A stretch of DNA of 64,000 nt from an uncultured Coriobacteriia bacterium (GTDB lineage Bacteria; Actinomycetota; Coriobacteriia; Anaerosomatales; PHET01). The notes beneath the pieces were generated by a model that worked only from the letters and a program-made list of their open reading frames with translations, made no database searches and was not told where the DNA came from. Shown piece after piece: positions 34,002 to 64,000 of the stretch. The translations under genes and the position numbers were made by a program. Within the stretch, counting starts at the first letter, position 1. Every line of letters starts with the position of its first letter. Where the stretch lies: NCBI GenBank assembly GCA_942493275.1, contig OW818687.1:2369918-2433917 (forward strand). The letters run 5' to 3'.

Positions 34002-34002
34002 G

Positions 34003-40864: not shown

Positions 40865-40874
40865 GTCCCTCCTC

Positions 40875-42246: not shown

Positions 42247-42352
42247 CGGTGCTCCCTCGCGCTGCCTTCCTGTCGCTCTCTTGATGATCGACAGGTCCGG
42301 TTAGACAGTAATCCGAGTGTCGCGCGACCACCCCAGACGGTCGCGCTCGGAC

Positions 42353-46775: not shown

Positions 46776-46890
46776 TCGGTCACATCAGTGCACCGAGGTC
46801 GTGCCGCTCCCCTCGCGGCGCTAAGCAATCGCAATGTTCACCCAGAGGCGCCGAGTTGTCCAGCGCGGGAGCCCCGGCAGGCTGCAAGCT

Positions 46891-47895: not shown

Positions 47896-47955
47896 GCCGT
47901 ACTCCTCATGCTCAACGAAAAGATCAGGCCGAGATGGATGGTATCAGAGGGGTCT

Positions 47956-48033
47956 ACCACCCAAAACGCCCCTTCGAGTATCTCCGGAGAGATCCCAAAG
48001 GGGCGTTGATGGTTGATGGTGGGCGATAGTGGA
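47956..48033. repeat. Direct repeat copy A: duplicated tRNA-Val 3' end (17 nt, 1 mismatch) plus duplicated tRNA terminator hairpin (distal att-like junction)
   Basis: Copy A is accacCCaaaacgccccttcgagtatctccggagagaTcccaaaggggcgtt...gatggtgggcgataGtgga. Copy B (50632-50711) is accacTGaaaacgccccttcgagtatctccggagagaCcccaaaggggcgtt...gatggtgggcgataCtgga. Confidence 0.8.
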
Positions 48034-48161
48034 CGGTCTTGTTACCCGTTTCTGGAGAGACGCGGGCTAACGTGTGTGTTGCAGGCGTCTGTGCCCCTAG
48101 CGGGTCGATTCAACCCCTTGGCGCTCTGTTCGATGCCTCTGCTGGATGGCTGTGCGCTTGC

Positions 48162-49397
48162 TCAGCCTGCGAGAAATACCGACGGATTGGCAATTCGGAT
48201 GTAGCTCGACATCCGCGGGTCAGAGAACTGATAGACCCCTTTGGAGCAGCGGTGAAGAATCGCTGAGTAGTCATCTGCGACCAGCTTCTGAAGGTAGTTG
48301 TTGAGCGAGCCTTGCGTAATTGGCGCGCCAGTCAGCTTCTCCACACCGGCACGCAACTCCTCCGCGCGAAACTCGGTCTTGTCCAACATGGCCGCGGCCT
48401 CCAATACGTGACGGTACATGTCCGTCCCATAGGAGCGAACCGCGTGTGCGTATTGCCGGAGCAGAGTGCCCTCCGCATCCTCGACAGCCAGGTTCATCGC
48501 CGACTCGAGGCACTTACGATCCACGATGGTCAGGTCGTTTGCTACGGCCTCCTCCGCGCACTTAAGTGCGAGCAGATGGGTGAAGTGTGGGTAGCCGGAG
48601 CTCAGTTTGACAATCTCTTTGGTGACTGTGGCATCGAAATCAAGTCCGACTTTCTCAGCCCCCTCCACGACGATCAGTTCTAGCTCATCCGCATTCATGC
48701 GGGGCAGACGCGTCTCCTTCAGACAGCGTTGGACGGACTCGTGGCCGCCGGTGAGCTCCTCTGCCGTCTGCGCGATGCCCACAACGAGGACCTTGAAGTT
48801 CGAACCGTTGTCGCTAAGAAGCTTGATCAGTTCCGCCAAGTTGCCCTTGTCCCCAGCCGTGGCAATCCGATCCGCTTCGTCGATGTACAGCAAGCCCTCG
48901 CGGTCTTTCAAAGCATCGGCCACGACTGACGGGGAAAATTGCTGCACGGAGTAGGTCTTCTCTGTCGCCCGCTCGCTGCCAATCTCTGCAGCGGCCACGG
49001 GGATCATGAGTCCGCCCTTACCGTGCTCTTTGTGCACCGTCTTCTTCGAAGTGAGGTCGACTTCAATCCCGAAATCGGCGAGCACCGGCGCGAGTACGGT
49101 CTCAAAAGTGTCGCTGGAGTCGCACCGCTTGGTGTACAGCTTGCCACTAATGACCTGCTTGATAAGAAGTTCGGTTGCGACATTTGCCAATGAGCTCTTC
49201 CCCACGCCGCGTTCTCCGTACAGGAGGGCATGCTGACCAGGCGTGTTGATCTGCTCAAGTATCTTGCCGACCTCCTTCTGGCGACCGAAGAAGAGTTCGA
49301 CCGCCTGTACCGGTCTATGGGGCGTGAAGACCTCTCGGACGCCGGACTTTCGGATCTTGGTCTCGCGCGCAATTCCAAACAGGTCAGGCTTGCCCAC
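48162..49397 (-). CDS. AAA+ ATPase (ORC/Cdc6-like or archaeal-ATPase-like) with C-terminal winged-helix-like domain
   Basis: 411 aa. FFGRQKEVGKILEQI...ALLYGERGVGKSSLAN (Walker A), LLYIDEADR (Walker B), and a C-terminal ...LQKLVADDYSAILHRCSKGVYQFSDPRMSSYIRI. GTG start preceded by GGAGGAG. Confidence 0.7.
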   Translation of the reverse strand: MGKPDLFGIARETKIRKSGVREVFTPHRPVQAVELFFGRQKEVGKILEQINTPGQHALLYGERGVGKSSLANVATELLIKQVISGKLYTKRCDSSDTFETVLAPVLADFGIEVDLTSKKTVHKEHGKGGLMIPVAAAEIGSERATEKTYSVQQFSPSVVADALKDREGLLYIDEADRIATAGDKGNLAELIKLLSDNGSNFKVLVVGIAQTAEELTGGHESVQRCLKETRLPRMNADELELIVVEGAEKVGLDFDATVTKEIVKLSSGYPHFTHLLALKCAEEAVANDLTIVDRKCLESAMNLAVEDAEGTLLRQYAHAVRSYGTDMYRHVLEAAAMLDKTEFRAEELRAGVEKLTGAPITQGSLNNYLQKLVADDYSAILHRCSKGVYQFSDPRMSSYIRIANPSVFLAG

Positions 49398-49500
49398 ATC
49401 TCCTCCTATGTCCGTCTAAAGTCGGCGCGCTTAGCTGCGCGAAGTGCCTGACGCTCCTGCACGTCAGGTTTAAGCGCTTGCCAGGCATCGCCTTTGAGTC

Positions 49501-49920
49501 CTAGCCGGCAATATCAAGCGAATCCGGCTGAGATTCATCCAAGTCCATACCGTCATCCGCAGGCATTCGCGCCTTGATTCGCGCGACCACCGACCGAGTC
49601 GATTCCCACGACTTCCACCAGAGCACGAGTAGCACCACGCCCGCGACAGAGGAGACGAGTGTGGCCAGCACGAAGACGTCGAACGTCCGGTTGTCGGAAA
49701 TCGTTGTCGTCTTCAACGCAATCAGAAGAGCAAGCGCCATCGAGAGGAAGAAGATGGCGAAGTTCAAGAAGAGGCTGCCGTTGCCGCCTGTGGTTAGGTC
49801 GTTCAGCTCAGACTCAGTGACTTCGTACAGAGACAGCGAATCAACACGCGCGCGACGCACGCGAACCTCACCCACACCACTGTCATTCGGATTCGTCATC
49901 AGAGATTCTTCTTCAGCCAC
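49501..49920 (-). CDS. Small membrane protein with two TM helices (hypothetical)
   Basis: 139 aa. A ~45-aa N-terminal soluble part, two hydrophobic helices (LFLNFAIFFLSMALALLIAL; VFVLATLVSSVAGVVLLVLWW) and an acidic C-terminal tail. Its start overlaps the upstream 88-aa gene by 22 nt. Confidence 0.6.
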   Translation of the reverse strand: MAEEESLMTNPNDSGVGEVRVRRARVDSLSLYEVTESELNDLTTGGNGSLFLNFAIFFLSMALALLIALKTTTISDNRTFDVFVLATLVSSVAGVVLLVLWWKSWESTRSVVARIKARMPADDGMDLDESQPDSLDIAG

Positions 49921-50165
49921 TCATTCGAACACATGACATTTCGCCACGCTGCAGCGGTACCGGACTTGACCACGAAGAGGCGGCTCCCTTCAGGGAGGAA
50001 CCGCTCGAGGTTGTCGCGTATCGACTTCTGGCCGTCTGCGGACACGATCGCCCACGTGGATTCGGTGACATGCGCCCAAGTGCCATAGGCTTTGATGGCC
50101 GTGAACAGGTCCTCGTAGTCTCCGCCGTCTGCCATGTCGTACGAAATGATGTAGCAGTCCTTCAT
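49899..50165 (-). CDS. Small soluble protein, predicted beta-alpha-beta-beta-alpha-beta (ferredoxin-like, Cas2/VapD-reminiscent) fold; hypothetical
   Basis: 88 aa: MKDCYIISYDMADGGDYEDLFTAIKAYGTWAHVTESTWAIVSADGQKSIRDNLERFLPEGSRLFVVKSG. The alternation of hydrophobic strands and amphipathic helices is read by eye. ATG preceded by GAGAGGAG; a TAATAT box and a GAGACaGTCTC palindrome lie upstream. Confidence 0.55.
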   Translation of the reverse strand: MKDCYIISYDMADGGDYEDLFTAIKAYGTWAHVTESTWAIVSADGQKSIRDNLERFLPEGSRLFVVKSGTAAAWRNVMCSNEWLKKNL

Positions 50166-50631
50166 TGGCGCTCGGAGCTCCTCTCGTGAGACTGTCTCAA
50201 TATTAGCGCAGGAACCCGAAGCCGACTCCCATGCGTATGCCCAACGTCTCTGCGCGGAGCCTGCGGCGTAGACGCCCGTCAGGAGGATTCTACCTTCTGG
50301 CCGTCAGGTTGACGCCAGTACCAGGCCTCGCGCGGCAGTTCCAGTGTCGATCCGTCCGGTCGATTGCTCGTTAACCGCAGACCGCCGTACACGGCCACGG
50401 CAAACAACCAGTGGCACGCGACCGTGAACTCCGATGCCGCGACCCACAGATCGTACTGCTCCAGTGAGCAGGAAACGCAGCGAGCTCGACCCGGTACAGC
50501 AGGTCAGAGATGCAGCGCTCACCTCGTCCCGCGCCCGGATCGCGTTCCAAGAAGCCGCCGATCACGACAAGCGAGAGGTCGTCCAGACCGTACTTTGGAA
50601 CCGGGGTGTGAAGGACGGCGACCTAAGCCCC

Positions 50632-50711
50632 CACCACTGAAAACGCCCCTTCGAGTATCTCCGGAGAGACCCCAAAGGGGCGTTCTGTTACAGATGGTGG
50701 GCGATACTGGA
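50632..50711. repeat. Direct repeat copy B: genuine tRNA-Val 3' end plus its terminator (proximal att-like junction)
   Basis: See copy A. It overlaps tRNA positions 59-75 (50695-50711) and the hairpin at 50641-50683. Confidence 0.8.
50637..50683 (-). terminator. Rho-independent terminator of tRNA-Val
   Basis: The reverse strand reads AACGCCCCTTtggggtctctccggagatactcgAAGGGGCGTTTTC: a 10-bp stem, an inner TCTCCGGAGA palindrome, and a trailing T-run. Confidence 0.75.
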
Positions 50712-50769
50712 TTTGAACCAGTGACTTCCACCGTGTGAAGGTGGCACTCTCCCGCTGAGTTAATCGCCC
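50695..50769 (-). tRNA. tRNA-Val (anticodon CAC), CCA encoded
   Basis: Hand-folded 75-nt cloverleaf. Acceptor GGGCGAT/ATCGCCC, D stem ACTC/GAGT, anticodon stem CCACC/GGTGG with loop TTCACAC, T stem ACTGG/CCAGT with loop TTCAAAT, discriminator A, 3' CCA. Confidence 0.95.
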
Positions 50770-50799
50770 GTACGCCGCCATGAGCGGCAAGTGGATAGT

Positions 50800-51777
50800 T
50801 TAGTGGTACCCGTCCGGGTGGGCAAGGTGCCATCGCCACGCATCTGCGACTATCTCGGCCAGCTCCCCATGTTCCGGGCTCCATCCGAGGACCTCTCCCG
50901 CTCGTACCGCCGATGCGACGAGTCTCGCGGGATCACCGGCACGGCGAGGCCCGATGTCGATCGCGACCTGTCGGCTGGTAACCTCGGCGCACGCCTGCAC
51001 GACCTCTCGATTGCTGAAGCCCTGCCCGTTCCCGAGGTTGAACACCCCGCCCTCGAATCCGTCGTTCAGACGCTCGAGCGCGATTCGGTGTGCTCGCGCG
51101 AGGTCCACCACGTGCACGTAGTCGCGCAAGCACGTGCCGTCCGGCGTCGCGTAGTCGCCCCCAAAGACCTCGAACGACGACTCGCCGTCACGCATCCGCT
51201 GCAGCACCCTCGGAATCAGATGAGTCTCGGGATCGTGCGCCTCACCGAGAGACCCGTCGGGCCACGCGCCAGCGACGTTGAAGTAGCGGAATCGGACGGA
51301 TCTCACGCCGCGCTCACGAAACTCGTCCAGCCGGCGCTCGAAGGCGAGCTTGCTCTCCCCGTAGGCGTTCACCGGCCGAGTGGGAGCCTCCTCGGTGATG
51401 GGCACCGACTCAGGCTCGCCGTAGACCGCTGCGGTAGACGAGAACACGATCGCCGTCACCCCGTGCTCGATCATCGCCTCCAGCAGGACGACGGGTTCCT
51501 CGGCGTTGTTTCGGATGTACTTCTGGGGGTCGGCCTGTGATTCGGCGACCTCGATGTAGCCGGCGAGATGCATGACAGCGTCACACCCCGGCAGGCACTC
51601 TTCGAGAACGCTTCTGTCCCCCACCGAGCCGACGACCAGGTCAGCGCGAGGGTCCACGGCAGCCTCCCAGCCGCGTTCCAGAGTGTCGAGGACGACGCAC
51701 TGGTGCCCCGCATCGAGCAGCGATCGGGTTGTGATCGAACCGATGTAGCCGGCCCCGCCGGTGACGAGAATCCTCAT
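50800..51777 (-). CDS. galE: UDP-glucose 4-epimerase
   Basis: 325 aa from ATG 51777 (MRILVTGGAGYIGS). Extended SDR with the YGESK catalytic motif. The track start 52044 overlaps the upstream gene. Confidence 0.9.
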   Translation of the reverse strand: MRILVTGGAGYIGSITTRSLLDAGHQCVVLDTLERGWEAAVDPRADLVVGSVGDRSVLEECLPGCDAVMHLAGYIEVAESQADPQKYIRNNAEEPVVLLEAMIEHGVTAIVFSSTAAVYGEPESVPITEEAPTRPVNAYGESKLAFERRLDEFRERGVRSVRFRYFNVAGAWPDGSLGEAHDPETHLIPRVLQRMRDGESSFEVFGGDYATPDGTCLRDYVHVVDLARAHRIALERLNDGFEGGVFNLGNGQGFSNREVVQACAEVTSRQVAIDIGPRRAGDPARLVASAVRAGEVLGWSPEHGELAEIVADAWRWHLAHPDGYH

Positions 51778-51815
51778 GTGACCTCCCGCATACAGACTAC
51801 CTGAAGGCCCGGTGA

Positions 51816-52904
51816 TCAGCGGAGAGGCACGATGCCGCGTCGAAGCGCTCGGCAGACCCTGGACGACACCGCTGAGTCCCATCGGCGCGGCGAGAGCCAC
51901 GTGCCGTGTTCGCCTAGCGCCGAGGCTATCGCGTCGCGGATGGGAGCTGGAGACGCGGCGACCATCCGATTCGCGCCGGCCTCCGTCGTCGCGGTGTGCT
52001 CGGTGCACTCTCGCACCGTCAGACACGGCGTCCCAATGACGCACGCCTCCTCCTGAAGCCCGCCGGAGTCAGTGACGACGACGGCGGCGTCACGGACCAG
52101 AGCGAGCATGTCTCGGTAGGGAACCGCCTCGACCACGTCGACCCCGGGTCCAACCGAGATGCCGTGGGCCTCGACCGCTCGAGTCAAACCCTGTGTGTCG
52201 GGGACCAACGACGGCAACTCAGTCATGGCCAGCCCATCCAGGATGCCCTTGAGCCTCTCGGCGCTGGACAGGTTCTCGGGCCGGTGAAAGGACGCGAGGA
52301 TGTACCGGCGTGGCGTGAGCCCTCTCGCAGAGACGGCTTCGTGACCGATGGAATCGATGCTGCGCAAGACGGACTCGGCCAGCATGTTTCCCACGAAGTG
52401 GATTCGTTCGGGATCTATGCCCTCATCCTGAAGGTTCTCTAGCGCGATCTCGGTCGGAGACAGGTGCATCGACGCAACACGCGAGATGAGCACCCGGTTC
52501 ACTTCTTCGGGAATCCCCAGGTCTCCGCAGCGCAGACCCGCCTCGAGATGCACGACCGGGATGCCTGACTTGACCGCCGAGATGGCCGCCGCAAGTGAGG
52601 TGGTGACGTCACCGACGACCATGATGGCGTCAGGCTTCTCGGTGGCAAAGAGCTGCTCGAACGCGACCATGGCCTTGCCCGCGAGCGAGGCGTCTGTGCC
52701 GCTGCCGACGTCAAGGCACCATCGGGGTTCCGGCAGTTCGACCCCGTAGAAGGAGACGGCACCCTTTCGATCCTCGGGATGGTATGCCTCTCGGGATCCC
52801 GAGAACACGATTTCGGCCTGAACACCCGATGCGACGAGAACCGGAATGAGCGGCCCAACCTTGACCACGTTCGGCCTGGCTCCGACCACCACCATCAGTC
52901 GCAC
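51816..52904 (-). CDS. wecB: UDP-N-acetylglucosamine 2-epimerase (non-hydrolysing), paralog 1
   Basis: 362 aa, with VGARPNVVKVGPL, VVGDVTTSLAAA, HLEAGLR and FHRPEN motifs. Confidence 0.88.
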   Translation of the reverse strand: MRLMVVVGARPNVVKVGPLIPVLVASGVQAEIVFSGSREAYHPEDRKGAVSFYGVELPEPRWCLDVGSGTDASLAGKAMVAFEQLFATEKPDAIMVVGDVTTSLAAAISAVKSGIPVVHLEAGLRCGDLGIPEEVNRVLISRVASMHLSPTEIALENLQDEGIDPERIHFVGNMLAESVLRSIDSIGHEAVSARGLTPRRYILASFHRPENLSSAERLKGILDGLAMTELPSLVPDTQGLTRAVEAHGISVGPGVDVVEAVPYRDMLALVRDAAVVVTDSGGLQEEACVIGTPCLTVRECTEHTATTEAGANRMVAASPAPIRDAIASALGEHGTWLSPRRWDSAVSSRVCRALRRGIVPLR

Positions 52905-52951: not shown

Positions 52952-54034
52952 CTACTCGGCGAGCGGCACGATCCCGGACTGCAGCGCCGTCACGACCCTC
53001 TCGGCGACTCGGTCGTCCCACCGGTCTGGATGCTCCCAATCGCGGCCCGAAGCGAGCCCAGCCGCCACGCCTTCGAGGATCTCGGCAGACGATGCTGAGA
53101 CGAGACGGTTCGACCCGATCTCGACGGTTACCTGACGCTCGGTGTTGCGCCGAACGGTGACACAGGGAGTCCCCAACATGCAGGTCTCCTCCTGCACGCC
53201 GCCCGAATCGGTGACGACGATGGCGGCGTCACGCTGGAGCGCGAGCATGTCCAGATAGCCGACAGGGTCCACCAGCTGAACGGACGAGCCCTCAGACAGG
53301 CCGGCCTCGGCGAGCTTGGGCCGGGTGCGCGGATGGACCGGGAAGATCGCCGGCATTCCGATGCCCTTGAGTCCAGATGCGATCTCCTCAAGACGATCAG
53401 GATGATCGGTATTCTCGGGCCGATGGATGGTCACAAGCGCGTACTGACCGGGAGTCTGGCCGTAACGACCGCATACCTCGCGATCGCGAATGCGCTCCAC
53501 ATTGCGGAGCACGGACTCGGCCATGATGTTGCCGACGAAGTGGATGCGCGAGCGATCGACGGCCTCGGCGACGAGGTTCGCCTCCGCAGCCTCGTTGGGC
53601 GTCAGCAGCATCGACGAGAGCTGGTCGGTCACGAGGCGGTTGATCTCCTCGGGCATGGACATGTCGCCCGAGCGAAGTCCCGCCTCGAGGTGCACGACCG
53701 GTATCCCGATCTTGGACGCCGCCAGCGCGCCGGCCAGGGTCGAATTGACGTCGCCTACCACCAGCAGCGCATCCGGCCTCTCGGCGACCAGGAGCTCCTC
53801 GAGTGCCATCATCGCCCGGCCCGTCTGTACGGCGTGCGTTCCCGAACCGATGCCGAGGAACCACGCGGGCTCCGGCAGCTCCAGATCGGCGAAGAACACG
53901 TCCGACATCGACGCGTCGTAATGCTGACCCGTGTGCGCGATGCTCGCGTCAATGCCGGCGGCAGCGAGTGCGGGCATGAGCGGACCGACCTTGATGAAGT
54001 TGGGGCGAGCTCCGACGACGACGATCAGACGCAT
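52952..54034 (-). CDS. wecB: UDP-N-acetylglucosamine 2-epimerase (non-hydrolysing), paralog 2
   Basis: 360 aa, collinear with paralog 1 (VGARPNFIKVGPL, VVGDVNSTLAGA, HLEAGLR, IHRPEN). The two are clearly diverged rather than recent copies. Confidence 0.88.
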   Translation of the reverse strand: MRLIVVVGARPNFIKVGPLMPALAAAGIDASIAHTGQHYDASMSDVFFADLELPEPAWFLGIGSGTHAVQTGRAMMALEELLVAERPDALLVVGDVNSTLAGALAASKIGIPVVHLEAGLRSGDMSMPEEINRLVTDQLSSMLLTPNEAAEANLVAEAVDRSRIHFVGNIMAESVLRNVERIRDREVCGRYGQTPGQYALVTIHRPENTDHPDRLEEIASGLKGIGMPAIFPVHPRTRPKLAEAGLSEGSSVQLVDPVGYLDMLALQRDAAIVVTDSGGVQEETCMLGTPCVTVRRNTERQVTVEIGSNRLVSASSAEILEGVAAGLASGRDWEHPDRWDDRVAERVVTALQSGIVPLAE

Positions 54035-54055: not shown

Positions 54056-55585
54056 CTAGTAGGCGCCGCGGGCGAACAGGACCGCCGGCAAGGTCCTGAG
54101 GATCAACTGAATATCGAGCCCCACAGACCAGTTCTCGATGTAGAACAGGTCGAGGCGAACCATCTCATCAAAGGTCAGACTACTGCGGCCCGAGACCTGC
54201 CACAGCCCGGTCATGCCAGGGGTGACCTCGAGTCGACGCCAGTCGTGGCGAGTGTAGCGCTCAACCTCCAGCGGCAGCGGCGGACGCGGTCCCACCAGCG
54301 ACATCTCGCCCTTCAACACGTTTATGAGCTGCGGAAACTCGTCGAGCGAGAACTTGCGCAGCCACTTCCCAACCGGTGTGACACGCGGGTCGTTCTTCAT
54401 CTTGAAGAGCGGACCGGACGCCTCGTTCTGAGCCTGAAGGTCAGCAAGACGCTGGTCTGCATCCCTATACATCGACCTGAACTTGAGCATCTGAAAACGC
54501 GTCCCGTTGCGCCCGACGCGTGGCTGACCGTACAGCACAGGGCCGGGACTACCCAACTTGATCAGCAAGGCGATCAGCACCCAGACAGGCAGGCCGATAA
54601 GAACGATGGCGCCGGCAAGGGCGAGGTCGAATACGCGCTTCGTGAGCCGCTTGGAGCGACTGAGCGAGATGCCCTTCACCGTGATGAGCGGCACACCCGC
54701 GACCTCGCTCACCAGAATCCGGCTCGTCAGGACCTCAAAGAGACCCGACGAGATGTGCACGTCAACGTCCACGTCGCGCAGTTCCGCAATCATGCGCGCC
54801 AGCACATCATGATCGAATGCCGAGGAAGCGATGATCACCGTGTCGATCTCGTGCGACTGGAGGATCTGGATGATGTCCCTCGCGGTTCCGAGCACCGGCA
54901 CGTTCTCGGAGCAGTAGTCGAGATCGAGCTTCTCGGCCAGTGATGATGCGAGACAGCCGACCGGCACGAGGCCGGCGGCGCGGTTCGCTCTGAGCACGCG
55001 AATTATGTCGGATGACTCAGCGTTGCTGCCGACGACGAGTGTGGGCTGCGTCACCATGCCCCGACGGCGCATCAGGTAGATGACCGCGTGGATGAGACCC
55101 CTTCCGAACGCCACCAAGATGATCGACAGCACCCAGGTGAGCAGCGTCCAGCCTCGCGAGAGGCCGGGGGTCTTCGCGAGATACGTGCCGAAGATCACTA
55201 CAACGACGCCCATCGACAGCGAACGAGCAATCGAACCTATCTCCGCCCCGCCCCACGACCACCGGTCGGGATCGTAGAGCCCGCCGAGGACCATCATGCC
55301 TATCCAGAGGGGGGCAACGATAAGCGACAGCTGCAGAAACGACATATCGACGACGAACGCTTCGGTCTGCTCGAACGCCACATCGATGGTCACCGACCCG
55401 AACCACAACCAACTGGCGATGAGGCCCGCGAGAAGGATCGAAACGAAGTCGCTGATGATGAGTGCTGCGACCAGTATGCGACGCCTGCGTCGGCGGGACG
55501 GAGTCTCGCGCTGCACCACACCGATTGAGTCGTTCGCGTCCAGGGTGCTCTCCGTTGTCGTCGCGTGTCGTTGGTGACGCGACAA
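54056..55585 (-). CDS. Polyprenyl-phosphate hexose-1-phosphate transferase (WbaP/exopolysaccharide priming sugar transferase family)
   Basis: 509 aa. N-terminal TM helices, a central CoA-binding-like domain, and a C-terminal bacterial sugar transferase domain ([22 protein letters not shown]...[21 protein letters not shown]). Confidence 0.9.
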
Positions 55586-55715
55586 GTATAGACGAGAGGC
55601 TCATGCATCATGAGTATCGCGCCGATTACATATACGAAGGTACACGTGTGCCCGCGAGCGGCTCGGTGATTGCAGTCGCCCGCGCGCGCAACGCGCATTA
55701 TGAAGGGGCTAACAA

Positions 55716-58700
55716 ATGAGTAGGCGTTCCGTGGTTCGGAGCAAGTGGACGACCGTCACCTGGTATGCGATGGCGGTGACTGCGCTTGTCGCAATCGCAG
55801 CCGTTATCCCGGCGACCGCGCATGCAGCGTACGTCCCAACCACGCGCGACCAGATGATCTTCGAGCGCTACGTGGTCCAGGGTCAGGGCGACTACCCACA
55901 GGCGATCACGGTGTCGCCCTTTGGTGATGTCTACTACACCCACTCGGACTACTGGGACGGCCTCGACGCGAGCAACAGTGTCCACGGCGTGACCTCTGAG
56001 GGCATCGAGTTCTTCAATGTGGGTGCGAGCGACTACAGCCAGTTCATGTGGCCGGACGGCCTCGCCCTAACCCCCGACGGTGACCTCGTAGTTGCCGATA
56101 CCAGCGAGACAGGCGACGGGGACCACAACCGTCTCAGGATGTTCGATACTTCAACCGGTTCCCTCATCCGCAATGTCGGCGGTCCCGGTACCGGGCCCCT
56201 CGGCTTCAACATGCCCTACGGTGTGGCAGTCAGCGACAGCGGACACGTCTACGTCGCAGACACCGGCAACAACCGGATTCAGATCATCGACGCCGCTACG
56301 GGCTCCTTCGAGTCTATGTGGTCCGTTCCCACCACCGTGGGCACCTCCCCCGATGGTCTTGCCTTCGACCCCGACGGCAACCTGTGGGTGGTTCTCACCG
56401 GCAACAACCGCGTGGCGAAGTTCTCGCCGACAGGCACTCTGCTCGACACCATCGACTCGTGGCAGGAGGTCGACGAGCAAGGCGACCCGACGGGCACCGG
56501 TACCTTCTGGGGCCCCAAGGACGTGGCTGTCGACCACTTCGGCGTCGTCTACGTGGCCGACACGGAGAACTCACGTGTCGTCCGTTTCGACTCTGAGGGC
56601 GGATGGCTCGCCACCCTCTACGGTGCCGATACTCCCGAGGCGGCGTTCTCCTACCCCACCGACGTCGACTGCGACGTCTTCGGCAATCTGTACGTCGCCG
56701 ATGCGTTCAACGATGCGGTCTACAAGATGAGCCTCGTCATGGCCGACCCCGACACGGTCCCGCCGGTGACGACGTCCAACGTCACGTCGGTGTGGCAGAA
56801 GGGCCCCGTCAACGTGACCCTCTCGGCCACGGACGCATCCCTGTCGGTTGAAGCGACCTACTACTCCATCGACGGCAGCGAGCCGTCGGTCCTCTACACG
56901 GGCCCGTTCCAGATCACGGCCGAGGGCACCACCCAGCTGCAGTACTACTCGGTGGACACCGCCGAGAACTCCGAGTTGGTCAAGTCGCAGGACGTGAGGA
57001 TCGACAACACGAATCCTGCGGCTGCCATCTCCCTGAACCAAGTCACCTACGGATACGAAACCACCGTGACGATGTCTGCGACTGACTCGCTCTCGGGCGT
57101 CAAGAACATCGTCTACATCCTGGACAACGGTACTCCCAAGTTCTACACCGGCCAGTTCAAGGTCATGGGCATCGGACTGCACTTCATCGACTACTGGAGC
57201 GTCGACAACGCAGGCAACGTCGAGCCGTTCAAGCACGCCTGGTGCAGCATCGAGGCGCCCGACGCCAACCCCCCCGTGTCGTACTCCGATGCGCCTTCCG
57301 GCTGGGTCAACCAGAACGTCTCGGTTGAGATCACCGCAACCGACGACGTGTCCGGCGTCGACGACATCTACTACTCGAGGGACGGCTCCAACCCGACAGT
57401 CCCGTACACCGGACCACTGACGTTCAACGCGGAGGGCATCAACGTCCTCAAGTACCACGCTATCGACCTGCGCGGAAACGCCGAGACTGTCCACACCGAC
57501 AACATCAAGATCGACAAGTCCGTGCCGACCGCTTCCAGTGACGCGGTCGCAAGCTACGTCGACAGCGCCACCATCAACTTCCAGGCGTCGGACTCGGTCT
57601 CTGGCGTTCTCGACTTCGTCTACCGATTCAACGACGGCGCGTGGCAGCATGGATACACGTTCAACACCACCCAGTGGGGTAACCATCGTGTCACGTGGTA
57701 CGCCACCGACCAGGCGGGCAACACGTCTTCCCAGCGGACGGACTACTTCACCGTTCTGCAGCCTGACAACGAGCCTCCTATCACCGGTGACGACATCCCC
57801 AGCTCATGGGTCAGAGGTCCTGTCTCGATCAACTTCGACGCACACGACGTCATCTCGTCGGTCGCGGCGACCTACTACTCGTTCGACGGCTCGTACCCCA
57901 CCAACGTCTACGACCCGCCGCTGACCTACAACGTCGAGGGCGAGCACGAGGTGAAGTTCTACTCGGAGGACTCCCGCGGCAACAAGGAACCGGTTACCAC
58001 CAAGACGGTGCGTATCGACAACACTCCCCCGGTTTCCACGAGTGATGTCGAAGAGTTCTACATGGGCACCGCCCACATCACCTTCACCGCTTCCGACTCG
58101 CTGTCCTCGGTGAACTACCTCTACTACCGTCTCGACGGCGGCACGTGGACTCAGGGACGCTCCGGCGACGTGCTGACCACCAGCGCCATCGGGAATCACA
58201 CGCTCGAGTACTACGCCGTAGACACGCCTGGCAACCGGGAGACGACACAGACCGCGAACTTCCGTCTGGTTCCGCCGGATACCGAGCCCCCCGTCACCAC
58301 CATGATTGCGCCGACCGGCTGGGTGAAGGGGCCCGTGCAAGTCGAGTTCTCCGCATACGACACGACGTCGACCATAACCGGTACCTACTACTCGCTCACC
58401 GGTGGAACGCCGATCAGCGCCTACACAGGCCCGATCACCGTCTTCGCCGAGGGGACCACCTACATCACGTACCGCTCAGTCGACGAGTGGTCGAACTGGG
58501 AAGACATCAAGTCCGGAGAGGTCAAGATCGACAACACCGCTCCTTTGACCAGCACTGATGCGACGTCCTCCTATGTCGACCAGGCCATCGTCACGTTCTC
58601 TCCGTCGGACCCCTTGTCCGGGGCCAAGACGACCTATTACAAGATCGACGGCGGCGCGTGGCAGCAGGGCTCCTCGGCCTACGTGACCGGCTACTACTAC

Positions 58701-61700
58701 CACACGGTCTACTACTACACGGTGGACAATGCGGGCAACGTCGAGCCGACGAAGTCCGCGACGTTCCGCATCAACCGATCCGACCGCTACTACGACGAGG
58801 ACGACAGCCTCATCCTCTATCGCGGCAACTGGAATGACATCAATGGCACCGGCGTCACCAATGGGACCACCGACCCCAACGGCTCGGTCTGGTACTACGT
58901 TCAGGCCGACCGGGTCTGGTACTACGCGGACATAGCTCCGAACGCTGGTATCGCGAGACTGTCAATCGACAACGGCCCCTGGATCGACATCGATCTCTAC
59001 AACGGCTGGCTGCGGTCCAACGAGATTGCCTGGTATTCGGGCGACCTCGAGTACGACTATCACCTGATTCGCATCGAGTACACGGGCCGCAAGAACCCGC
59101 TCTCGAGCGGCTACGGCATCAACCTGGCGCAAGCGCGCGTCCAGGGCACGATGTACCCGGTGCCGGACTCCCAGGCCCCGGTTACCACATCGAACGTCAA
59201 CGGCGACTGGCAGAAGGGCCCGGTGAGCGTGAGCCTCACGTCCACCGACGCCACCACGGGCGTAGCGTCGACCTACTACTCGACGGACGGCTCGAACCCG
59301 TCCCTGACGTACTCCGCTCCGGTGAGCCTGACGAATCAGGGCACTACGGTGTTCAAGTTCTACTCGGTGGACAAACGCGGCAATGCCGAGGCCGTTCACA
59401 CCGAGTACGTGAAGATCGACAATACGGCGCCGGTCACGACAAGCAACGCCGCCAGCGCCTACGTGGGCGCCGCGACGATCACGCTTTCTCCGACTGACTC
59501 CCACTCCGGCGTCGCTTCGACGTTCTGGCGGGTAGACGGCGGGGCGTGGCAGACCGGACTCACCGCCAGCGTGGCCAACGCTCCGGGCGATCACCTGGTC
59601 GAGTGGTACTCAGTAGACGCTCTCGGCAACACCGAGACGGTCAAGAGCGCGTCGGTGGCGATCTGCACACGGTACGAGCAGGATGCGTCGGCGATTGTGT
59701 ATCGCGGGTCCGGATGGAGCACCGCTGGTAACGCGGCACGCTCCGGTGGCAGCTGGGCGTACACGAATGCAGCAGGCTCCTCGGCGTACTTCGTTGTTCA
59801 GGGAACCGGTCTCGATCTTGTGGCGTCGACCGGCCCCACCTACGGAATCGCACGCATCGTCGTTGACGGCGGGACTCCCGTGAACGCCGATCTGTACTCG
59901 TCCACCAACAAGCACCAGATCCGAGTCGCGCAGATTCGCGGTCTCTCAGCAGGTACCCACCGAGTCCGCATCGAGTGGACGGGCACCAAGAACGCCTCAT
60001 CGAGTGGTACGGGAATCGGCATCGACGCGATCGATTCAGTCGGCACGATCACGCCTGACGTGACGGCCCCGGTCTCCACCAGCGACATCGTCGAGGGCTG
60101 GCGCAACACCTCCTCGACCGTCACCCTGAGCGCCATCGACACCGACAGCTACGTGGCGTCGATCAACTATCGGATCAACGGAGGCGCACCCACGGTCTAC
60201 TCGGCACCCTTCTCGGTCACGGCCGAGGGCGACCATACCGTCGAGTTCTGGGCGGTCGATGGCGCGGGCAACGCCGAGACGCCCACCACCAAGCATGTCC
60301 GTATCGACCGCACGCTTCCCGCCGGTTCCCATAACGCCGACAGCGCATGGCAGCAAGGGCCCGTCGACGTCGAGCTCACAGCGACCGACGACCGCTCGGC
60401 CGTGGCTTCGGTGCTCTACAGCACCGACGGCAGCGTGCCGCATCTTGTGTACACCGACGCAATCACCGTGAGCGCTGAGGGTGAGACGACCATCCGCTTC
60501 AGCGTGACCGACAACGCCGGCAACTCGGTCGAGCCTGCGTCCGCACTCGTTCGCGTCGACAACACCGCCCCGACGACCGGCGACAACGCTCCTGACGAGT
60601 GGGTCGGCGGTCCCGTGGACGTGACCCTCACCCCGAGTGACGCGCGGTCCGGCGTCGCGACCACCACCTACACCATCGACGGCGGCGCGCCGCAGACCTA
60701 CACGGGCACGTTCACCCTCTCCGATGAGGGCGACCACACCCTGCAGTACTGGTCGATCGACCATGCGGACAACCTCGAATCCACGACCACGAAGCACGTC
60801 CGGATCGATGACAGCGCGCCGGTGACAACCGACGACGCCCCGGCAGGCTGGGTCGACGGACCGGTCAGCGTCACGCTCGAGGCCACCGACACCGTCTCAG
60901 GCCTTGAGCTCACCGAGTATCGCCTCGACGGCGGTGCGTGGAGCGCCTACGACGCACCCGTCCAGATCAGCGCCGAGGGAACCACCACCCTCGAGTACCG
61001 TTCGGTCGACGTGAAGGGCAACAGCGAGAACATCAACTCCGCGACTGTGAGGATCGACGACAGCGCGCCGGTGACAACCGACGACGCACCCGCAGGCTGG
61101 GTCGACGGACCGGTCAGCGTCACGCTCGAGGCCACCGACACCGTCTCAGGCCTTGAGCTCACCGAGTACCGCCTGAACGGCGGTGCGTGGAGCGCCTACG
61201 ACGCACCCGTCCAGATCAGCGCCGAGGGAACCACCACGCTCGAGTACCGCTCGGTCGACGTGAAGGGCAACACCGAGCAGATCAACACCGCGACTGTGAG
61301 GATCGATGACAGCGCGCCGGTGACAACCGACGACGCCCCGGCAGGCTGGGTCGACGGACCGGTCAGCGTCACGCTCGAGGCGACCGACACCGTCTCAGGC
61401 CTCGAGCTCACCGAGTATCGCCTCGACGGCGGTGCGTGGAGCGCCTACGACGCACCCGTCCAGATCAGCGCCGAGGGAACCACCACCCTCGAGTACCGTT
61501 CGGTCGACGTGAAGGGCAACAGCGAGAACATCAACTCCGCGACTGTGAAGATCGATGACAGCGCGCCGGTGACGTCTGATGACGCACCCGCAGGCTGGGT
61601 CAACGGGCCGGTCAGCGTCACGCTCGAGGCCACCGACGCCGTCTCAGGCCTCGAGCTCACCGAGTACCGTCTCGACGGCGGTGCGTGGAGCGCCTACGAC

Positions 61701-64000
61701 GCACCCGTCCAGATCAGCGCCGAGGGAACCACCACGCTCGAGTACCGTTCGGTCGACGTGAAGGGCAACAGCGAGCAGGTCAACTCCGCGACCGTCACGA
61801 TCGACGACAGCGCCCCGGTGATCTCAGACAACGCCGCCGCACGCTACTTCGGCTCCGCCACCGTCACCCTGACGGTCTCAGACGCGCTCTCGGGTGTGGC
61901 CGATACCGAGTACCGCATCAACGGTGGCACCTGGACGTCGGGCACGAGCCTCACGATCCCCGAGACGGGCATCATCGTTCTCGAGTATCGCTCCACCGAC
62001 GTCGCGGGCAACGTCTCTGACACCACGACCAGAGAGTTCGTGGTGGTCAACCGCACGGAGAACGATGCGGCCATGGTGAGCTACACCGAGGCGTGGACCA
62101 GAAACACGCTCGCGGGCGCCTCGGGCGGCACCTATCAGACCACGACCGCCAACAACGCGACGGCAAACATCTCGTTCAACGGCAGGCGCATCGACCTGAT
62201 CGGCATCAAGGCGCCGTTCCTGGGCATCGCCAACGTCATCGTCGACGGCGGGGCCCAGATACCGGTCGACTGCTACAACCCCACGCAGCTCAACAACACG
62301 GTGGTGTGGAGTTCAGGCGAGCTCTCAGACGGCCCCCACACCCTGCGCGTGGAGTACACCGGCACCAAGAACCCGGCCGCGACAAACACGCGCGTGAGCA
62401 TCGACGCGTTCGACATCGTCGGATCGGCCGCGATGCGCCGCTACGAGCAAGACGACATCCTGGCCGCGTACTACGGGTCGTGGTCGACAAACAACCTGGC
62501 GAGCGCCTCGGGCACCACGTATCAGACCACCATCGCATCCGGCTCGTCGGCAGACATCGCCTTCAACGGCAAGCGCGTCGACCTGATCGGCATCAAGGCG
62601 CCGTTCCTGGGCATCGCCAACGTCATCGTCGACGGCGGGGCCCCGATACCGGTCGACTGCTACAACACCACGCAGCTCAACAACACGGTGCTGTGGAGCT
62701 CAGGCGAGCTCACAGACGGCCGCCACACGGTGCGCGTGGAGTACACCGGCACCAAGAACCCGGCCGCGAGCAACACCCGCGTGAGCATCGACGCGTTCGA
62801 CGTCGTGGGCTACCTCACTCCCCTGCGCTACGAGCAGAACAGTGCCTGGGCGAGCTACGTGGGCACCTGGACCGAGAACACGTACTCCGACGCCTCCGGC
62901 GGCACCTACAAGACCACCGTGGCAGCCGGCTCGGCCGCCAACATCGCCTTCGAGGGAACCGGCATCGACCTGATCGGCATCAAGGCGCCGTTCCTGGGCA
63001 TCGCCAACGTCATCCTCGACGGCGGCGAGCCGATCCCGGTCGACCAGTACGGCGCGGTGCAGAACCACCGCCAGGTCCTGTGGTCGGTGCGCAACCTCCC
63101 CTACGGGCGCCACACCGTCCGCGTCGAGTACACCGGGACCAAGAACCCGGCTTCGACCACGGCGCGCGTGAGCCTCGATGCCTACGACGTCACCGGGCAC
63201 CTCGGCCTGCGGCGCTACGCCGACTCCGACACCAACCTGGCCTACACCGGCACGTGGGCGACCAACTCCTACGCCGGCGCACTCGACAACTCATACCGCA
63301 CCACCATCACGTCAGGGACCGCGGCCCACATCGCCTTCAGCGGCAAGCGCATCGACCTGCTCGGCATCAAGGCGCCGTTCCTGGGCATCGCCAACGTCAT
63401 CATCGACGACGGCGCACCCATCCCGGTGGACTTCTACAACGCCACCCAGCTCGACCGCCAGGTGATCTGGAGCTCGGGCACGCTCACCGACGGCCCGCAC
63501 ACCCTGCGCATCGTGTGCACGGGTACCAAGAACCCCGCGGCCTCCTCGGTCAGAGTCAACCTCGACGGCCTCGACGTGGTCGGAGAGATGCGTGAGTCCG
63601 ATAAGGTCGCTCCTGTCACCGTGGATGACGCGCCCACCGGCTGGAGCAAGGACGACGTCAGCGTGAGGCTCACTGCGACTGACGCCTTGTCGGCTGTTGC
63701 CACTACGTACTACAAGCTCAACGGCGCCACGCCCGCCGTCTACACCACGCCCATCCTCGTCACTGAATCAGGGCTCAATTCGATTGAGTACTGGTCCGTG
63801 GACAGCCGTGGCAACGTCGAGCAGTCTCGTTCAACCTCAGTTCAAATCGACAAGTCGGCACCCGTTGTCAACATCAACGCGCCGAGCGGCTGGGTAGGCT
63901 CGCCGGCCATGGTGACGTTGGATGCGCTGGACAGCCAGAGCGGGCCGGATACCATCCTCTACTCGCTTGACGCATCCGCACCCAGCATTGCCTATGAAGG
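55716..64000 (+). CDS. Giant secreted/cell-surface repeat protein: signal peptide, NHL-repeat beta-propeller, at least 20 Ig-like ~80-aa domains and 6 CBM-like ~129-aa modules; 3' end beyond window
   Basis: Not in the ORF track because it has no stop; no other + strand ORF is listed in its frame. ATG at 55716 with GAAGGGG upstream. The N-terminus is MSRRSVVRSKWTTVTWYAMAVTALVAIAAVIPATAHA/AY. NHL motifs are YVADTGNNRIQ, LTGNNRVAKF, YVADTENSRVVRF and YVADAFNDAVYKM. These are followed by recurring D.TAP.T...GW..GPV.V.L.A.D..SGV....Y..DGG.W units. Confidence 0.9.
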   Translation, partial: MSRRSVVRSKWTTVTWYAMAVTALVAIAAVIPATAHAAYVPTTRDQMIFERYVVQGQGDYPQAITVSPFGDVYYTHSDYWDGLDASNSVHGVTSEGIEFFNVGASDYSQFMWPDGLALTPDGDLVVADTSETGDGDHNRLRMFDTSTGSLIRNVGGPGTGPLGFNMPYGVAVSDSGHVYVADTGNNRIQIIDAATGSFESMWSVPTTVGTSPDGLAFDPDGNLWVVLTGNNRVAKFSPTGTLLDTIDSWQEVDEQGDPTGTGTFWGPKDVAVDHFGVVYVADTENSRVVRFDSEGGWLATLYGADTPEAAFSYPTDVDCDVFGNLYVADAFNDAVYKMSLVMADPDTVPPVTTSNVTSVWQKGPVNVTLSATDASLSVEATYYSIDGSEPSVLYTGPFQITAEGTTQLQYYSVDTAENSELVKSQDVRIDNTNPAAAISLNQVTYGYETTVTMSATDSLSGVKNIVYILDNGTPKFYTGQFKVMGIGLHFIDYWSVDNAGNVEPFKHAWCSIEAPDANPPVSYSDAPSGWVNQNVSVEITATDDVSGVDDIYYSRDGSNPTVPYTGPLTFNAEGINVLKYHAIDLRGNAETVHTDNIKIDKSVPTASSDAVASYVDSATINFQASDSVSGVLDFVYRFNDGAWQHGYTFNTTQWGNHRVTWYATDQAGNTSSQRTDYFTVLQPDNEPPITGDDIPSSWVRGPVSINFDAHDVISSVAATYYSFDGSYPTNVYDPPLTYNVEGEHEVKFYSEDSRGNKEPVTTKTVRIDNTPPVSTSDVEEFYMGTAHITFTASDSLSSVNYLYYRLDGGTWTQGRSGDVLTTSAIGNHTLEYYAVDTPGNRETTQTANFRLVPPDTEPPVTTMIAPTGWVKGPVQVEFSAYDTTSTITGTYYSLTGGTPISAYTGPITVFAEGTTYITYRSVDEWSNWEDIKSGEVKIDNTAPLTSTDATSSYVDQAIVTFSPSDPLSGAKTTYYKIDGGAWQQGSSAYVTGYYYHTVYYYTVDNAGNVEPTKSATFRINRSDRYYDEDDSLILYRGNWNDINGTGVTNGTTDPNGSVWYYVQADRVWYYADIAPNAGIARLSIDNGPWIDIDLYNGWLRSNEIAWYSGDLEYDYHLIRIEYTGRKNPLSSGYGINLAQARVQGTMYPVPDSQAPVTTSNVNGDWQKGPVSVSLTSTDATTGVASTYYSTDGSNPSLTYSAPVSLTNQGTTVFKFYSVDKRGNAEAVHTEYVKIDNTAPVTTSNAASAYVGAATITLSPTDSHSGVASTFWRVDGGAWQTGLTASVANAPGDHLVEWYSVDALGNTETVKSASVAICTRYEQDASAIVYRGSGWSTAGNAARSGGSWAYTNAAGSSAYFVVQGTGLDLVASTGPTYGIARIVVDGGTPVNADLYSSTNKHQIRVAQIRGLSAGTHRVRIEWTGTKNASSSGTGIGIDAIDSVGTITPDVTAPVSTSDIVEGWRNTSSTVTLSAIDTDSYVASINYRINGGAPTVYSAPFSVTAEGDHTVEFWAVDGAGNAETPTTKHVRIDRTLPAGSHNADSAWQQGPVDVELTATDDRSAVASVLYSTDGSVPHLVYTDAITVSAEGETTIRFSVTDNAGNSVEPASALVRVDNTAPTTGDNAPDEWVGGPVDVTLTPSDARSGVATTTYTIDGGAPQTYTGTFTLSDEGDHTLQYWSIDHADNLESTTTKHVRIDDSAPVTTDDAPAGWVDGPVSVTLEATDTVSGLELTEYRLDGGAWSAYDAPVQISAEGTTTLEYRSVDVKGNSENINSATVRIDDSAPVTTDDAPAGWVDGPVSVTLEATDTVSGLELTEYRLNGGAWSAYDAPVQISAEGTTTLEYRSVDVKGNTEQINTATVRIDDSAPVTTDDAPAGWVDGPVSVTLEATDTVSGLELTEYRLDGGAWSAYDAPVQISAEGTTTLEYRSVDVKGNSENINSATVKIDDSAPVTSDDAPAGWVNGPVSVTLEATDAVSGLELTEYRLDGGAWSAYDAPVQISAEGTTTLEYRSVDVKGNSEQVNSATVTIDDSAPVISDNAAARYFGSATVTLTVSDALSGVADTEYRINGGTWTSGTSLTIPETGIIVLEYRSTDVAGNVSDTTTREFVVVNRTENDAAMVSYTEAWTRNTLAGASGGTYQTTTANNATANISFNGRRIDLIGIKAPFLGIANVIVDGGAQIPVDCYNPTQLNNTVVWSSGELSDGPHTLRVEYTGTKNPAATNTRVSIDAFDIVGSAAMRRYEQDDILAAYYGSWSTNNLASASGTTYQTTIASGSSADIAFNGKRVDLIGIKAPFLGIANVIVDGGAPIPVDCYNTTQLNNTVLWSSGELTDGRHTVRVEYTGTKNPAASNTRVSIDAFDVVGYLTPLRYEQNSAWASYVGTWTENTYSDASGGTYKTTVAAGSAANIAFEGTGIDLIGIKAPFLGIANVILDGGEPIPVDQYGAVQNHRQVLWSVRNLPYGRHTVRVEYTGTKNPASTTARVSLDAYDVTGHLGLRRYADSDTNLAYTGTWATNSYAGALDNSYRTTITSGTAAHIAFSGKRIDLLGIKAPFLGIANVIIDDGAPIPVDFYNATQLDRQVIWSSGTLTDGPHTLRIVCTGTKNPAASSVRVNLDGLDVVGEMRESDKVAPVTVDDAPTGWSKDDVSVRLTATDALSAVATTYYKLNGATPAVYTTPILVTESGLNSIEYWSVDSRGNVEQSRSTSVQIDKSAPVVNINAPSGWVGSPAMVTLDALDSQSGPDTILYSLDASAPSIAYE
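60807..61802 (+). repeat. Four tandem 249-bp (83-aa) near-identical coding repeats inside the giant gene
   Basis: Unit starts at 60807, 61056, 61305 and 61554; the next, diverged domain starts at 61803. By my reading units 1 and 3 differ at only 3 of 249 nt, and unit 2 differs at about a dozen positions. Confidence 0.9.
62052..63599 (+). repeat. Four tandem 387-bp (129-aa) CBM-like module repeats inside the giant gene
   Basis: The anchor tcgacctg...ggcatcaaggcgccgttcctgggcatcgccaacgtcatc recurs at 62191, 62578, 62965 and 63352, a period of 387. Each unit reads RYEQD..Y.G.W......ASGG.Y.TT...G..A.I.F.G..IDLIGIKAPFLGIANVI.DGG.PIPVD.Y......V.WSSG.L.DG.HT.RVEYTGTKNPA...RVS.DA.DV.G. Confidence 0.85.

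Follow-up and report, generated by a model that had tools for sequence, protein, structure and literature searches.

The window analysed here is a stretch of 64,000 nucleotides from an uncultured Coriobacteriia bacterium (contig OW818687.1), the right-hand end of which carries, on the plus strand at 55716–64000, the first part of a gene for a very large secreted protein. The full-length product, hereafter the giant protein, is composed of a Sec signal peptide, a six-bladed NHL propeller, 24 immunoglobulin-like (Ig-like) domains and ten jelly-roll modules (J). Its domain layout, the place of its gene in a polysaccharide cluster, and the proteins on which J occurs elsewhere point to a fibrous envelope protein that is held by its J modules on or in the cell's own glycan layer, with the propeller as its head. 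We put the probability of this reading at roughly one half.

The original prediction, made from the sequence alone, called an incomplete reading frame of more than 2760 codons at 55716–64000, and this frame proves to be real. It comprises 2761 codons without a stop, continues past the window end, and shows a GC content of 0.56/0.50/0.86 at the three codon positions, the coding pattern in a genome of 65% GC. By our own arithmetic, with a stop frequency of ~0.025 per codon at the given composition, a stop-free frame of this length would arise by chance with a probability of ~1e-31. The sequence GAAGGGG, ~8 nt before the ATG at 55716, is the ribosome-binding site. It lies in a 130-bp intergenic region (55586–55715) that separates the giant gene from a divergent glycan-priming transferase gene and that is AT-richer, as had been predicted (GC 0.569, versus 0.62 in the flanking DNA); a promoter and terminator scan of this region found no sigma-70 consensus site and no terminator. 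All other open reading frames (ORFs) of the window with coding-like codon-position GC are on the minus strand, consistent with the claim that this is the only plus-strand gene. A public full-length protein (P0001, 3646 aa) is 100% identical across the whole window part, and the gene accordingly runs for 885 codons past the window.

The domain map was built from a HMMER/phmmer self-comparison of the giant protein, and it reproduces the predicted domain coordinates almost to the base. With subtype-specific hidden Markov models (HMMs), the full-length architecture reads SP-NHL-ABABABABJABJ-AAAAAAABJJJJ-AAAAABJJJJ, where SP is the signal peptide, A and B are two subtypes of OmpL47-type Ig-like domain and J is a CBM6/35-like jelly roll; the last block, AAAAABJJJJ, is followed by the stop codon. 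The Sec-type signal peptide (aa 1–37, 55716–55826, plus strand, as are all domains below) is composed of a basic n-region and a hydrophobic core followed by ...ATAHA/AYVP, with a predicted cleavage site AHA/AY. The AHA-xYVP motif is kept in orthologues (alignment A2), which supports the 37-residue signal peptide of the original prediction. The propeller (aa ~55–345, 55878–56750) had been described as having five or six blades. Six blade motifs are readable in aa 55–345, the Pfam NHL model (PF01436) scores 77 bits against a cutoff of 20 (6e-22), and the SGL model matches at 9e-13, so that both the HMM score and the blade count place it among the NHL propellers. Furthermore, it matches PDB sequences including Pizza7H (7.5e-50), the PknD sensor domain (3.7e-23), and Pizza6 and TRIM71, which are six-bladed NHL propellers.

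The propeller is followed by a rod of Ig-like domains, of which at least 20 had been predicted; 20, of ~83 aa each, fall within the window, which truncates the twentieth. Eight domains in strict A–B alternation (aa 351–1023, 56766–58784) come first, so that the predicted alternation of two subtypes in the first half is real; they are followed, between the first two J modules, by a further A–B pair (aa 1156–1319, 59181–59672), then by seven A domains and one B domain (aa 1453–2112, 60072–62051), and, after the tandem J array, by two more A domains (63615–64000). The repeats match the NCBIfam model NF047446 (OmpL47-type beta-barrel domain) with 1038.7 bits against a cutoff of 40 in 19 stretches, which places them in this domain family and bears out the label 'Big/OmpL47-like'. 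They also match Pfam CHB_HEX_C_1 (199.8 bits against 22) and Fn3_assoc. In a one-genome-per-species scan, the isolated OmpL47-type domain is far more widespread than the family of the giant protein.

The AlphaFold model of an A–B pair, computed from 35 family sequences, has a predicted local distance difference test (pLDDT) score of 98.1 and places two Ig-like sandwiches one after the other. The structures nearest to it are tandem BIg domains from SiiE (template modelling (TM) score 0.69–0.76), together with CbhA Fn3-like domains, intimin D00-D0, GhpA, Bap and SraP; a PDB sequence search with the pair found no sequence-level kinship to any solved chain. The family alignment reveals an invariant Asp/Asn near the ends of the Ig-like domains, which suggests, by analogy with SiiE, that the junctions may be stabilised by Ca2+.

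Six jelly-roll modules had been predicted in the window, and all six, of ~130 aa each, are found: J1 (aa 1026–1147, 58791–59156; phmmer self-match 5.9e-15; included in alignment A1), J2 (aa 1319–1448, 59670–60059; phmmer 6.5e-22), and a tandem array of four, J3–J6 (aa 2113–2629, 62052–63602; Tandem Repeats Finder period 387). In alignment A1, the residues W15, D65, D73, Y75, H96 and D118 are nearly invariant. The AlphaFold model of J3 (pLDDT 94.3, 55 sequences) is a beta-jelly roll. In a Foldseek search, it is closest to 3nqh, an accessory domain of a Bacteroides glycosidase (E 2.6e-7, TM 0.71), and its other neighbours include the xanthan-binding module MiXBM (7ehg), the carbohydrate-binding module (CBM) of a xanthan lyase (6f2p), the N-terminal domain of CE2 enzymes (2wab/2wao), and, at TM 0.5–0.56, a CBM35 (2wz8, 6.6e-4) and a CBM6 (2cdp, 1.8e-3). 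The description 'CBM-like jelly roll' is thus right at the level of the fold, where the model agrees with CBM6 and CBM35, and J shares its beta-jelly roll with CBM35, CBM6 and MiXBM over a Foldseek range of E 2.6e-7 to 2e-3 (TM 0.5–0.7). J differs from these modules in that it is no member of the CAZy CBM6 or CBM35 families by sequence and occurs in tandem arrays on non-glycosidase proteins. Specifically, there is no Pfam CBM_6 or CBM35 match; only CE2_N responds, with 55.5 bits summed over stretches of which none passes singly (the best, aa 1351–1419, lies in J2), and a PDB sequence search with J gave no match at E≤0.1. Judging from the modelled fold, we infer that the J modules may bind glycans.

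The original prediction asked for a C-terminal anchor to be sought in the full-length protein. No LPXTG motif, SLH domain or transmembrane segment is present, and anchoring by any of the three is ruled out. The C-terminus, ...LDGLDVVGEMHQAIP, follows directly on the last J and ends (…VVGEMHQAIP) 2 residues past it, with no LPXTG, hydrophobic segment or basic tail. Pfam and NCBIfam searches of the window part found neither SLH nor CWB2 domains, and the rest of the protein is wholly accounted for by A, B and J. The mature protein would have a mass of 383.5 kDa and a pI of 4.3. It is rich in Thr (11.7%), Ser (9%), Tyr (4.9%) and Asp, poor in Lys, and contains little Cys (0.3%) and Met (0.6%), a composition typical of surface-layer proteins.

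The same build recurs in twelve further proteins (P0002–P0012 and P0014), which share 36–51% identity with the giant protein in the best local alignment. P0002–P0008 are 2890–3517 aa long, P0002–P0007 all exceeding 2900 aa. Eight of the twelve open with the propeller and the ABABABABJABJ core, the seven full-length orthologues all stop 0–2 residues beyond a terminal J array, and, in the set of 13 proteins compared, a B domain stands in front of each J block (52/52). When one genome per species was scanned with a single peptide pattern, full N-terminal matches were obtained in only four metagenome-assembled genomes (MAGs), namely HGW-Actinobacteria-7, UBA7524, an 'uncultured Actinomycetes' MAG and a short contig labelled Eubacteriales; another orthologue lies in the Coriobacteriia MAG GCA_034370385.1. 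Named relatives of the giant protein stem from uncultured MAGs of Actinomycetota/Coriobacteriia type. The genomes of cultured Anaerosomatales (1.84 and 2.11 Mb) are different from that of the window and were not recovered by this single-pattern scan, so that the 'pili-like appendages' of these cultures provide no more than a lead. We found no literature description of this family, of its locus position or of a retention role of J.

Three further proteins carry the same modules in other layouts. P0013 (4167 aa) and P0016 (4014 aa) consist of ~30 mostly B-type OmpL47 domains, with no propeller and no jelly rolls, and their N-terminus resembles a pilin/PilX-type hydrophobic segment, another way to mount the OmpL47 repeat. 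P0015 (3266 aa) combines one jelly roll and several OmpL47-type domains with RCC1 repeats and many CxxCH-like haem-binding motifs, a layout that suggests that the modules of the giant protein also serve a putative extracellular multihaem cytochrome.

An exhaustive search of 1.84 billion representative proteins with the J profile reveals a very large family: at thresholds of E≤0.001, E≤1e-10 and E≤1e-30 it detects 23,424, 13,096 and 2,724 proteins, respectively. The family has no model of its own in the Pfam and NCBIfam libraries searched, and a word-indexed homologue search with the J profile returned three short proteins only. Among the 146 best matches, the J modules form tandem arrays of a median of five copies and a maximum of 14, the array ends within 15 residues of the C-terminus in 109 of 146, and a crude hydrophobicity test finds a signal-peptide-like N-terminus in 93 of 143. 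A Pfam scan covered 105 of these matches. The peptidoglycan-active partner domains are NlpC/P60 (10 proteins), SpoIID (6), Amidase_3 (5), the L,D-transpeptidase domain YkuD (2) and the polysaccharide deacetylase domain Polysacc_deac_1 (1), the counts of which sum to 24, corresponding to 20–24 of the 105 proteins as overlaps are possible. Other partners are TIG (18), cohesin (9), the S8 subtilase domain (5), CWB2 (2) and PG_binding_1 (1). Polysaccharide-degrading domains occur on only a few of the scanned proteins. A minority of J proteins carry cohesin, beta-helix, rhamnogalacturonan I (RGI)-lyase or CBM_4_9 domains, and the source name of one J cluster is 'cell wall-associated NlpC family hydrolase'. 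J is thus found in tandem arrays on secreted proteins that include peptidoglycan-active enzymes.

The Gram-positive wall-retention repeats SLH, CWB2, LysM and GW have the same spectrum of partner domains. Like J, these and the choline-binding repeats form tandem, mostly C-terminal arrays on surface proteins, hydrolases, amidases and proteases, and a further parallel is the linkage of the giant gene and its relatives to wall-glycan biosynthesis genes, including WecB and TagA/WecG-like ones. They differ from J in fold and sequence family, and none occurs in the giant protein. The pattern is that of a Gram-positive cell-wall-retention module, and J appears to behave like one. A precedent for the fold comes from CBM35, modules of which are thought, according to a passage in PMC6174289 that cites Montanier 2009, to tether enzymes to bacterial walls via uronic acids.

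In the window, the giant gene is divergent from an exopolysaccharide (EPS)-type polyprenyl glycosylphosphotransferase gene (54056–55585, minus strand), which is the glycan-priming transferase of the original prediction; the assignment is confirmed by Bac_transf (7e-67) and CoA_binding_3 matches and by a TIGR03025 score of 422 bits against a cutoff of 295.55. Behind it, likewise on the minus strand, lie two WecB-type UDP-N-acetylglucosamine 2-epimerase genes (52952–54034 and 51816–52904) and a GalE-type 4-epimerase gene (within 50800–52044), all assigned by HMM and syntenic in relatives. The GalE ORF 50800–52044 overlaps the second WecB ORF by 229 nt; its true start is probably near 51780, because the GalE domain begins only at residue ~90.

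This arrangement is conserved. An orthologue of the priming transferase (59–70% identity) is the immediate divergent neighbour of the giant gene in 8 of 8 related loci with upstream DNA, and orthologues of WecB, GalE and the ABC-F gene found farther upstream follow behind it. On the 3′ side, four related loci with downstream DNA were compared. Hexapeptide acetyltransferase and family 4 glycosyltransferase (GT4) genes lie 3′ of the giant gene in 4/4 and a WecG/TagA-like transferase gene is present in 4/4 (downstream of the giant gene in two), along with a Wzy_C protein in 3/4, a Wzx flippase in two (L001 and L002), a GFO/IDH/MocA oxidoreductase in two, a CapK-like gene in one or two and a Wzz/GNVR tyrosine-kinase-type regulator in one (L001); just a subset of the genes downstream is encoded on the opposite strand. 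The giant gene, being flanked by pathway genes in related loci, thus sits inside a Wzx/Wzy-type polysaccharide cluster, and the link to glycan genes is stronger than originally claimed, the arrangement being conserved in all related loci examined. The neighbours are 59–81% conserved, versus 27–51% for the giant protein, as expected for a fast-evolving surface molecule. Because its gene is always inside a cell-surface polysaccharide cluster, the role of the giant protein is most likely to coat or organise the glycan layer of the cell itself.

The product of the cluster is probably a polymer that contains N-acetylmannosamine (ManNAc) and is acetylated, because WecB, WecG/TagA-like, GalE and acetyltransferase genes are present. 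Downstream of the giant gene in L001, L002 and L005, a GFO/IDH/MocA oxidoreductase fused to ADH_zinc_N, hexapeptide acetyltransferases and WecB-like epimerases are found. These genes presumably resemble the pathway to UDP-2,3-diacetamido-mannuronic acid, and a uronic-acid polymer would fit the preference of CBM35 for uronic acids.

These data lead us to the following model. The giant protein would be exported by the Sec pathway and, after removal of its signal peptide, would fold into a beads-on-a-string rod of 24 Ig-like domains with the propeller at its N-terminus and the ten J modules spread along it. At ~3.3–4 nm per domain, as in SiiE-type rods, the fibre would span ~110–140 nm. The J modules would act as multivalent, lectin-like retention modules on a cell-wall-associated glycan, so that the fibre is held non-covalently, and the most economical ligand would be the ManNAc-containing, acetylated heteropolysaccharide made by the surrounding cluster. 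As J occupies domain positions 9 and 12 and forms two arrays of four in the C-terminal half, the fibre would probably be fastened to the glycan layer, or threaded through it, in several places, and the ABABABAB arm with the propeller may project as a distal ligand-binding head, in an adhesin or surface-coat role. Ligand identity, fibre orientation and adhesion target are what we infer from layout and locus. An S-layer-like or adhesin role, possibly with glycosylation, had been proposed; it is compatible with the evidence, and we would refine it to retention by the J modules. A broader version, in which J is a major Gram-positive envelope-retention class with an SLH/CWB2-like role, here recognises the ManNAc- or uronic-acid-type polymer of the cluster, and makes the 3646-aa protein the main fibrous coat of OPB41/Anaerosomatales-like actinobacteria, is tentative, and possible rather than probable.

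Several points weigh against retention by J on a wall-associated glycan. The CBM fold by itself, here known from a model, would not give a ligand, and the sample of partner domains consists of top-scoring, multi-copy matches only, without taxonomy; nor does the occurrence of J beside such domains amount to binding. For the window genome, the embedding of the gene on its 3′ side would follow from that in relatives. No LCP-type ligase was found in the loci examined, the Wzz/BY-kinase genes of relatives fit a released capsule or EPS as readily as a wall-linked polymer, and J modules spread along a rod are no less compatible with matrix cross-linking than with simple anchoring at the C-terminus. 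The conserved synteny could also mean that the giant protein is a glycosylation substrate of the cluster.

The alternative that survives best, and that we regard as unlikely, is a released biofilm-matrix scaffold, secreted into the capsule or EPS, in which the ten lectin-like modules cross-link polymer and cells. The distribution of J along the whole rod, not at one end only, the Wzx, Wzy_C and Wzz/GNVR kinase genes of the related loci, and the location of the giant gene between the two halves of a polysaccharide cluster all favour it. There is also a precedent in Bap1 and RbmC of Vibrio cholerae, which combine a propeller with lectin domains and function in dependence on the VPS exopolysaccharide (PMC8295476). 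Like the giant protein, these contain a beta-propeller plus lectin-type modules, although they are not homologous to it, being Gram-negative proteins of ~70–100 kDa with an eight-bladed propeller and a beta-prism lectin. The RbmC and Bap1 genes adjoin vps clusters. However, the J family sits on NlpC/P60, Amidase_3, SpoIID and L,D-transpeptidase proteins, which act on the wall, and most J arrays stand strictly at the C-terminus, the arrangement of known wall anchors. A matrix scaffold and retention at the wall are not mutually exclusive.

Nor is retention by J exclusive with an S-layer-type glycoprotein, in which the O-glycan of the cluster is put on the Thr/Ser/Tyr-rich giant protein by an oligosaccharyltransferase of the Wzy_C family and J is otherwise used; we consider this improbable. 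The composition (Thr plus Ser ~21%, with the Tyr content given above, acidic and Cys-poor), the WbaP/WsaP-type priming transferase next door and the Wzy_C genes of related clusters are what such a protein would be expected to have, and the slg S-layer glycosylation clusters of Geobacillus and Paenibacillus provide an analogy. In addition, an upstream family 2 glycosyltransferase (GT2) is weakly similar to the S-layer N-glycosyltransferase AglJ, far below the cutoff. However, Wzy_C proteins may equally be polymerases of the Wzx/Wzy pathway, a 384-kDa chain with 34 domains in tandem bears little resemblance to the S-layer proteins that typically form lattices, and the J arrays on wall hydrolases would be left unexplained.

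A still different use of the J modules, the binding of exogenous plant, algal or microbial polysaccharides by a non-catalytic, scaffoldin-like tether of the cell, is highly improbable: the nearest solved folds of J are CBMs of polysaccharide-degrading enzymes and the minority of J proteins with cohesin, beta-helix, RGI-lyase or CBM_4_9 domains would be in keeping with it, but the giant protein has no catalytic, cohesin or dockerin domain, the linkage that is conserved is with genes for glycan biosynthesis rather than degradation, and peptidoglycan-active enzymes are the dominant catalytic partners of J. A cellulosome-like scaffoldin is rejected outright, cohesin and dockerin being absent from the giant protein. 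A giant adhesin of the RTX type secreted by a type 1 system (SiiE/LapA type) is likewise rejected, as a Sec signal is present, RTX repeats are absent and the neighbours are glycan-synthesis genes.

The giant gene contains near-identical repeats. Tandem Repeats Finder detects a period of 249 bp with 4.1 copies and 93% matches, corresponding to four tandem copies of one A domain each (60802–61821); the 249-bp A units in the window are 92–98% identical in pairwise DNA comparisons, and the four copies are a recent internal expansion. Furthermore, the B-JJJJ block at aa 2035–2629 recurs at aa 3051–3644 with 98.8% identity. Each relative protein carries its own near-identical internal duplications, indicating that the giant family grows by recent segmental duplication. 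Repeats of this kind are error-prone in assembly, and both the 249-bp copies and the duplicated block of ~600 aa could speak for a pseudogene or for an assembly product of collapsed or expanded repeats, conditions under which the original prediction would have fallen, but such an artefact is hardly credible and is rejected, given 3646 codons without an in-frame stop, a third-position GC of 0.86 throughout, repeats diverged enough to be told apart, a contig of 2.5 Mb, and seven independent orthologues (2890–3517 aa) from different metagenomes with the same architecture and their own duplications. The copy number could be off by one or two units, with the conclusion unaffected.

The giant protein resembles several known systems in part. 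OmpL47 (LIC13050) of Leptospira interrogans, the surface exposure of which was shown experimentally (PMC2698987), contains domains of the same NCBIfam family as the ~83-aa repeat. It is, however, a 39-kDa spirochaete protein of few domains, whereas in the giant protein, which comes from a Gram-positive lineage, 24 copies are combined with a propeller and with jelly rolls. The Lepto_OmpL47 equivalog model NF047441 scores 534.6 against 250, summed over 12 partial matches of which the best stretch covers positions 66–224 of 336. Because this score arises from domain repetition over positions 66–224 only, the giant protein is not an OmpL47 orthologue; that candidate is rejected, as the repeat domain alone is held in common and the architecture is entirely different. 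SiiE, Bap, SraP and GhpA, like the giant protein, arrange tandem Ig-like domains in a long rod, but SiiE-type proteins use type 1 secretion with a C-terminal signal and SraP/Bap-type proteins an LPXTG anchor, whereas the giant protein carries its Sec signal at the N-terminus and lacks any known anchor. The Methanosarcina surface-layer fragment 1L0Q (YVTN propeller plus PKD), which turns up in the sequence search with the propeller (1.8e-11) and, at rank 30, in the structure search with the Ig-pair model, shares the succession of a propeller and Ig-like/PKD domains with the giant protein; unlike the giant protein, it is archaeal, much shorter, of another propeller subtype and without jelly rolls.

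Farther upstream of the glycan genes, the window contains a tRNA-Val gene (50695–50769, minus strand), a low-GC stretch, a gene for a polytopic membrane protein, a response regulator gene, the ABC-F gene and a nuo operon. The low-GC stretch (46000–50770; GC 0.58–0.60 versus ~0.65), directly beside the tRNA gene, holds the GT2 gene (46891–47895), a gene for an nSTAND1/AAA NTPase (48162–49397) and a small membrane ORF (49501–49920). It has the appearance of an island that entered at the tRNA gene, within an otherwise syntenic stretch from the response regulator to the glycan genes, and in the related locus L004 toxin–antitoxin genes are found at the same spot. The product of 45282–46775 (minus strand; 497 aa, at least nine hydrophobic segments) has no Pfam or NCBIfam match, so that the earlier label 'GT-C' is unconfirmed; it could be a divergent GT-C, a Wzy or a ligase-like protein. 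The nuo (complex I-like) operon (31000–42300, minus strand) shows a strongly positive AT skew (up to 0.34) on the plus strand over its membrane-subunit genes, and in L001 and L002 both this operon and the ABC-F gene share synteny with the locus of the giant protein. A flavin mononucleotide riboswitch (RF00050, 5295–5412, minus strand; 115.5 bits against a gathering cutoff of 66.2) lies just upstream of the ORF 4163–5293 (minus strand).

Giant Ig-repeat surface proteins, NHL propellers and CBM-fold modules are each of already known kinds. What is new here is a fixed-grammar family in uncultured Coriobacteriia-like actinobacteria with an invariant place inside a Wzy/Wzx-type cluster, and evidence that J is part of a very large family that has no Pfam or NCBIfam model of its own and behaves as a wall-retention module would. 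The locus provides a concrete model for the little-known envelope architecture of these deep-branching, mostly uncultured actinobacteria of subsurface and anaerobic habitats: one giant fibre, present in at least eight related genomes and genetically locked to a polysaccharide-assembly cluster. If J is not a retention domain, the giant protein amounts to no more than one further Ig-repeat surface protein of very large size. If J is a wall or glycan retention domain, it would help to explain how proteins are displayed in Gram-positive bacteria without SLH or LPXTG systems, would improve the annotation of thousands of 'hypothetical' proteins, and would provide a new affinity handle for bacterial glycans.

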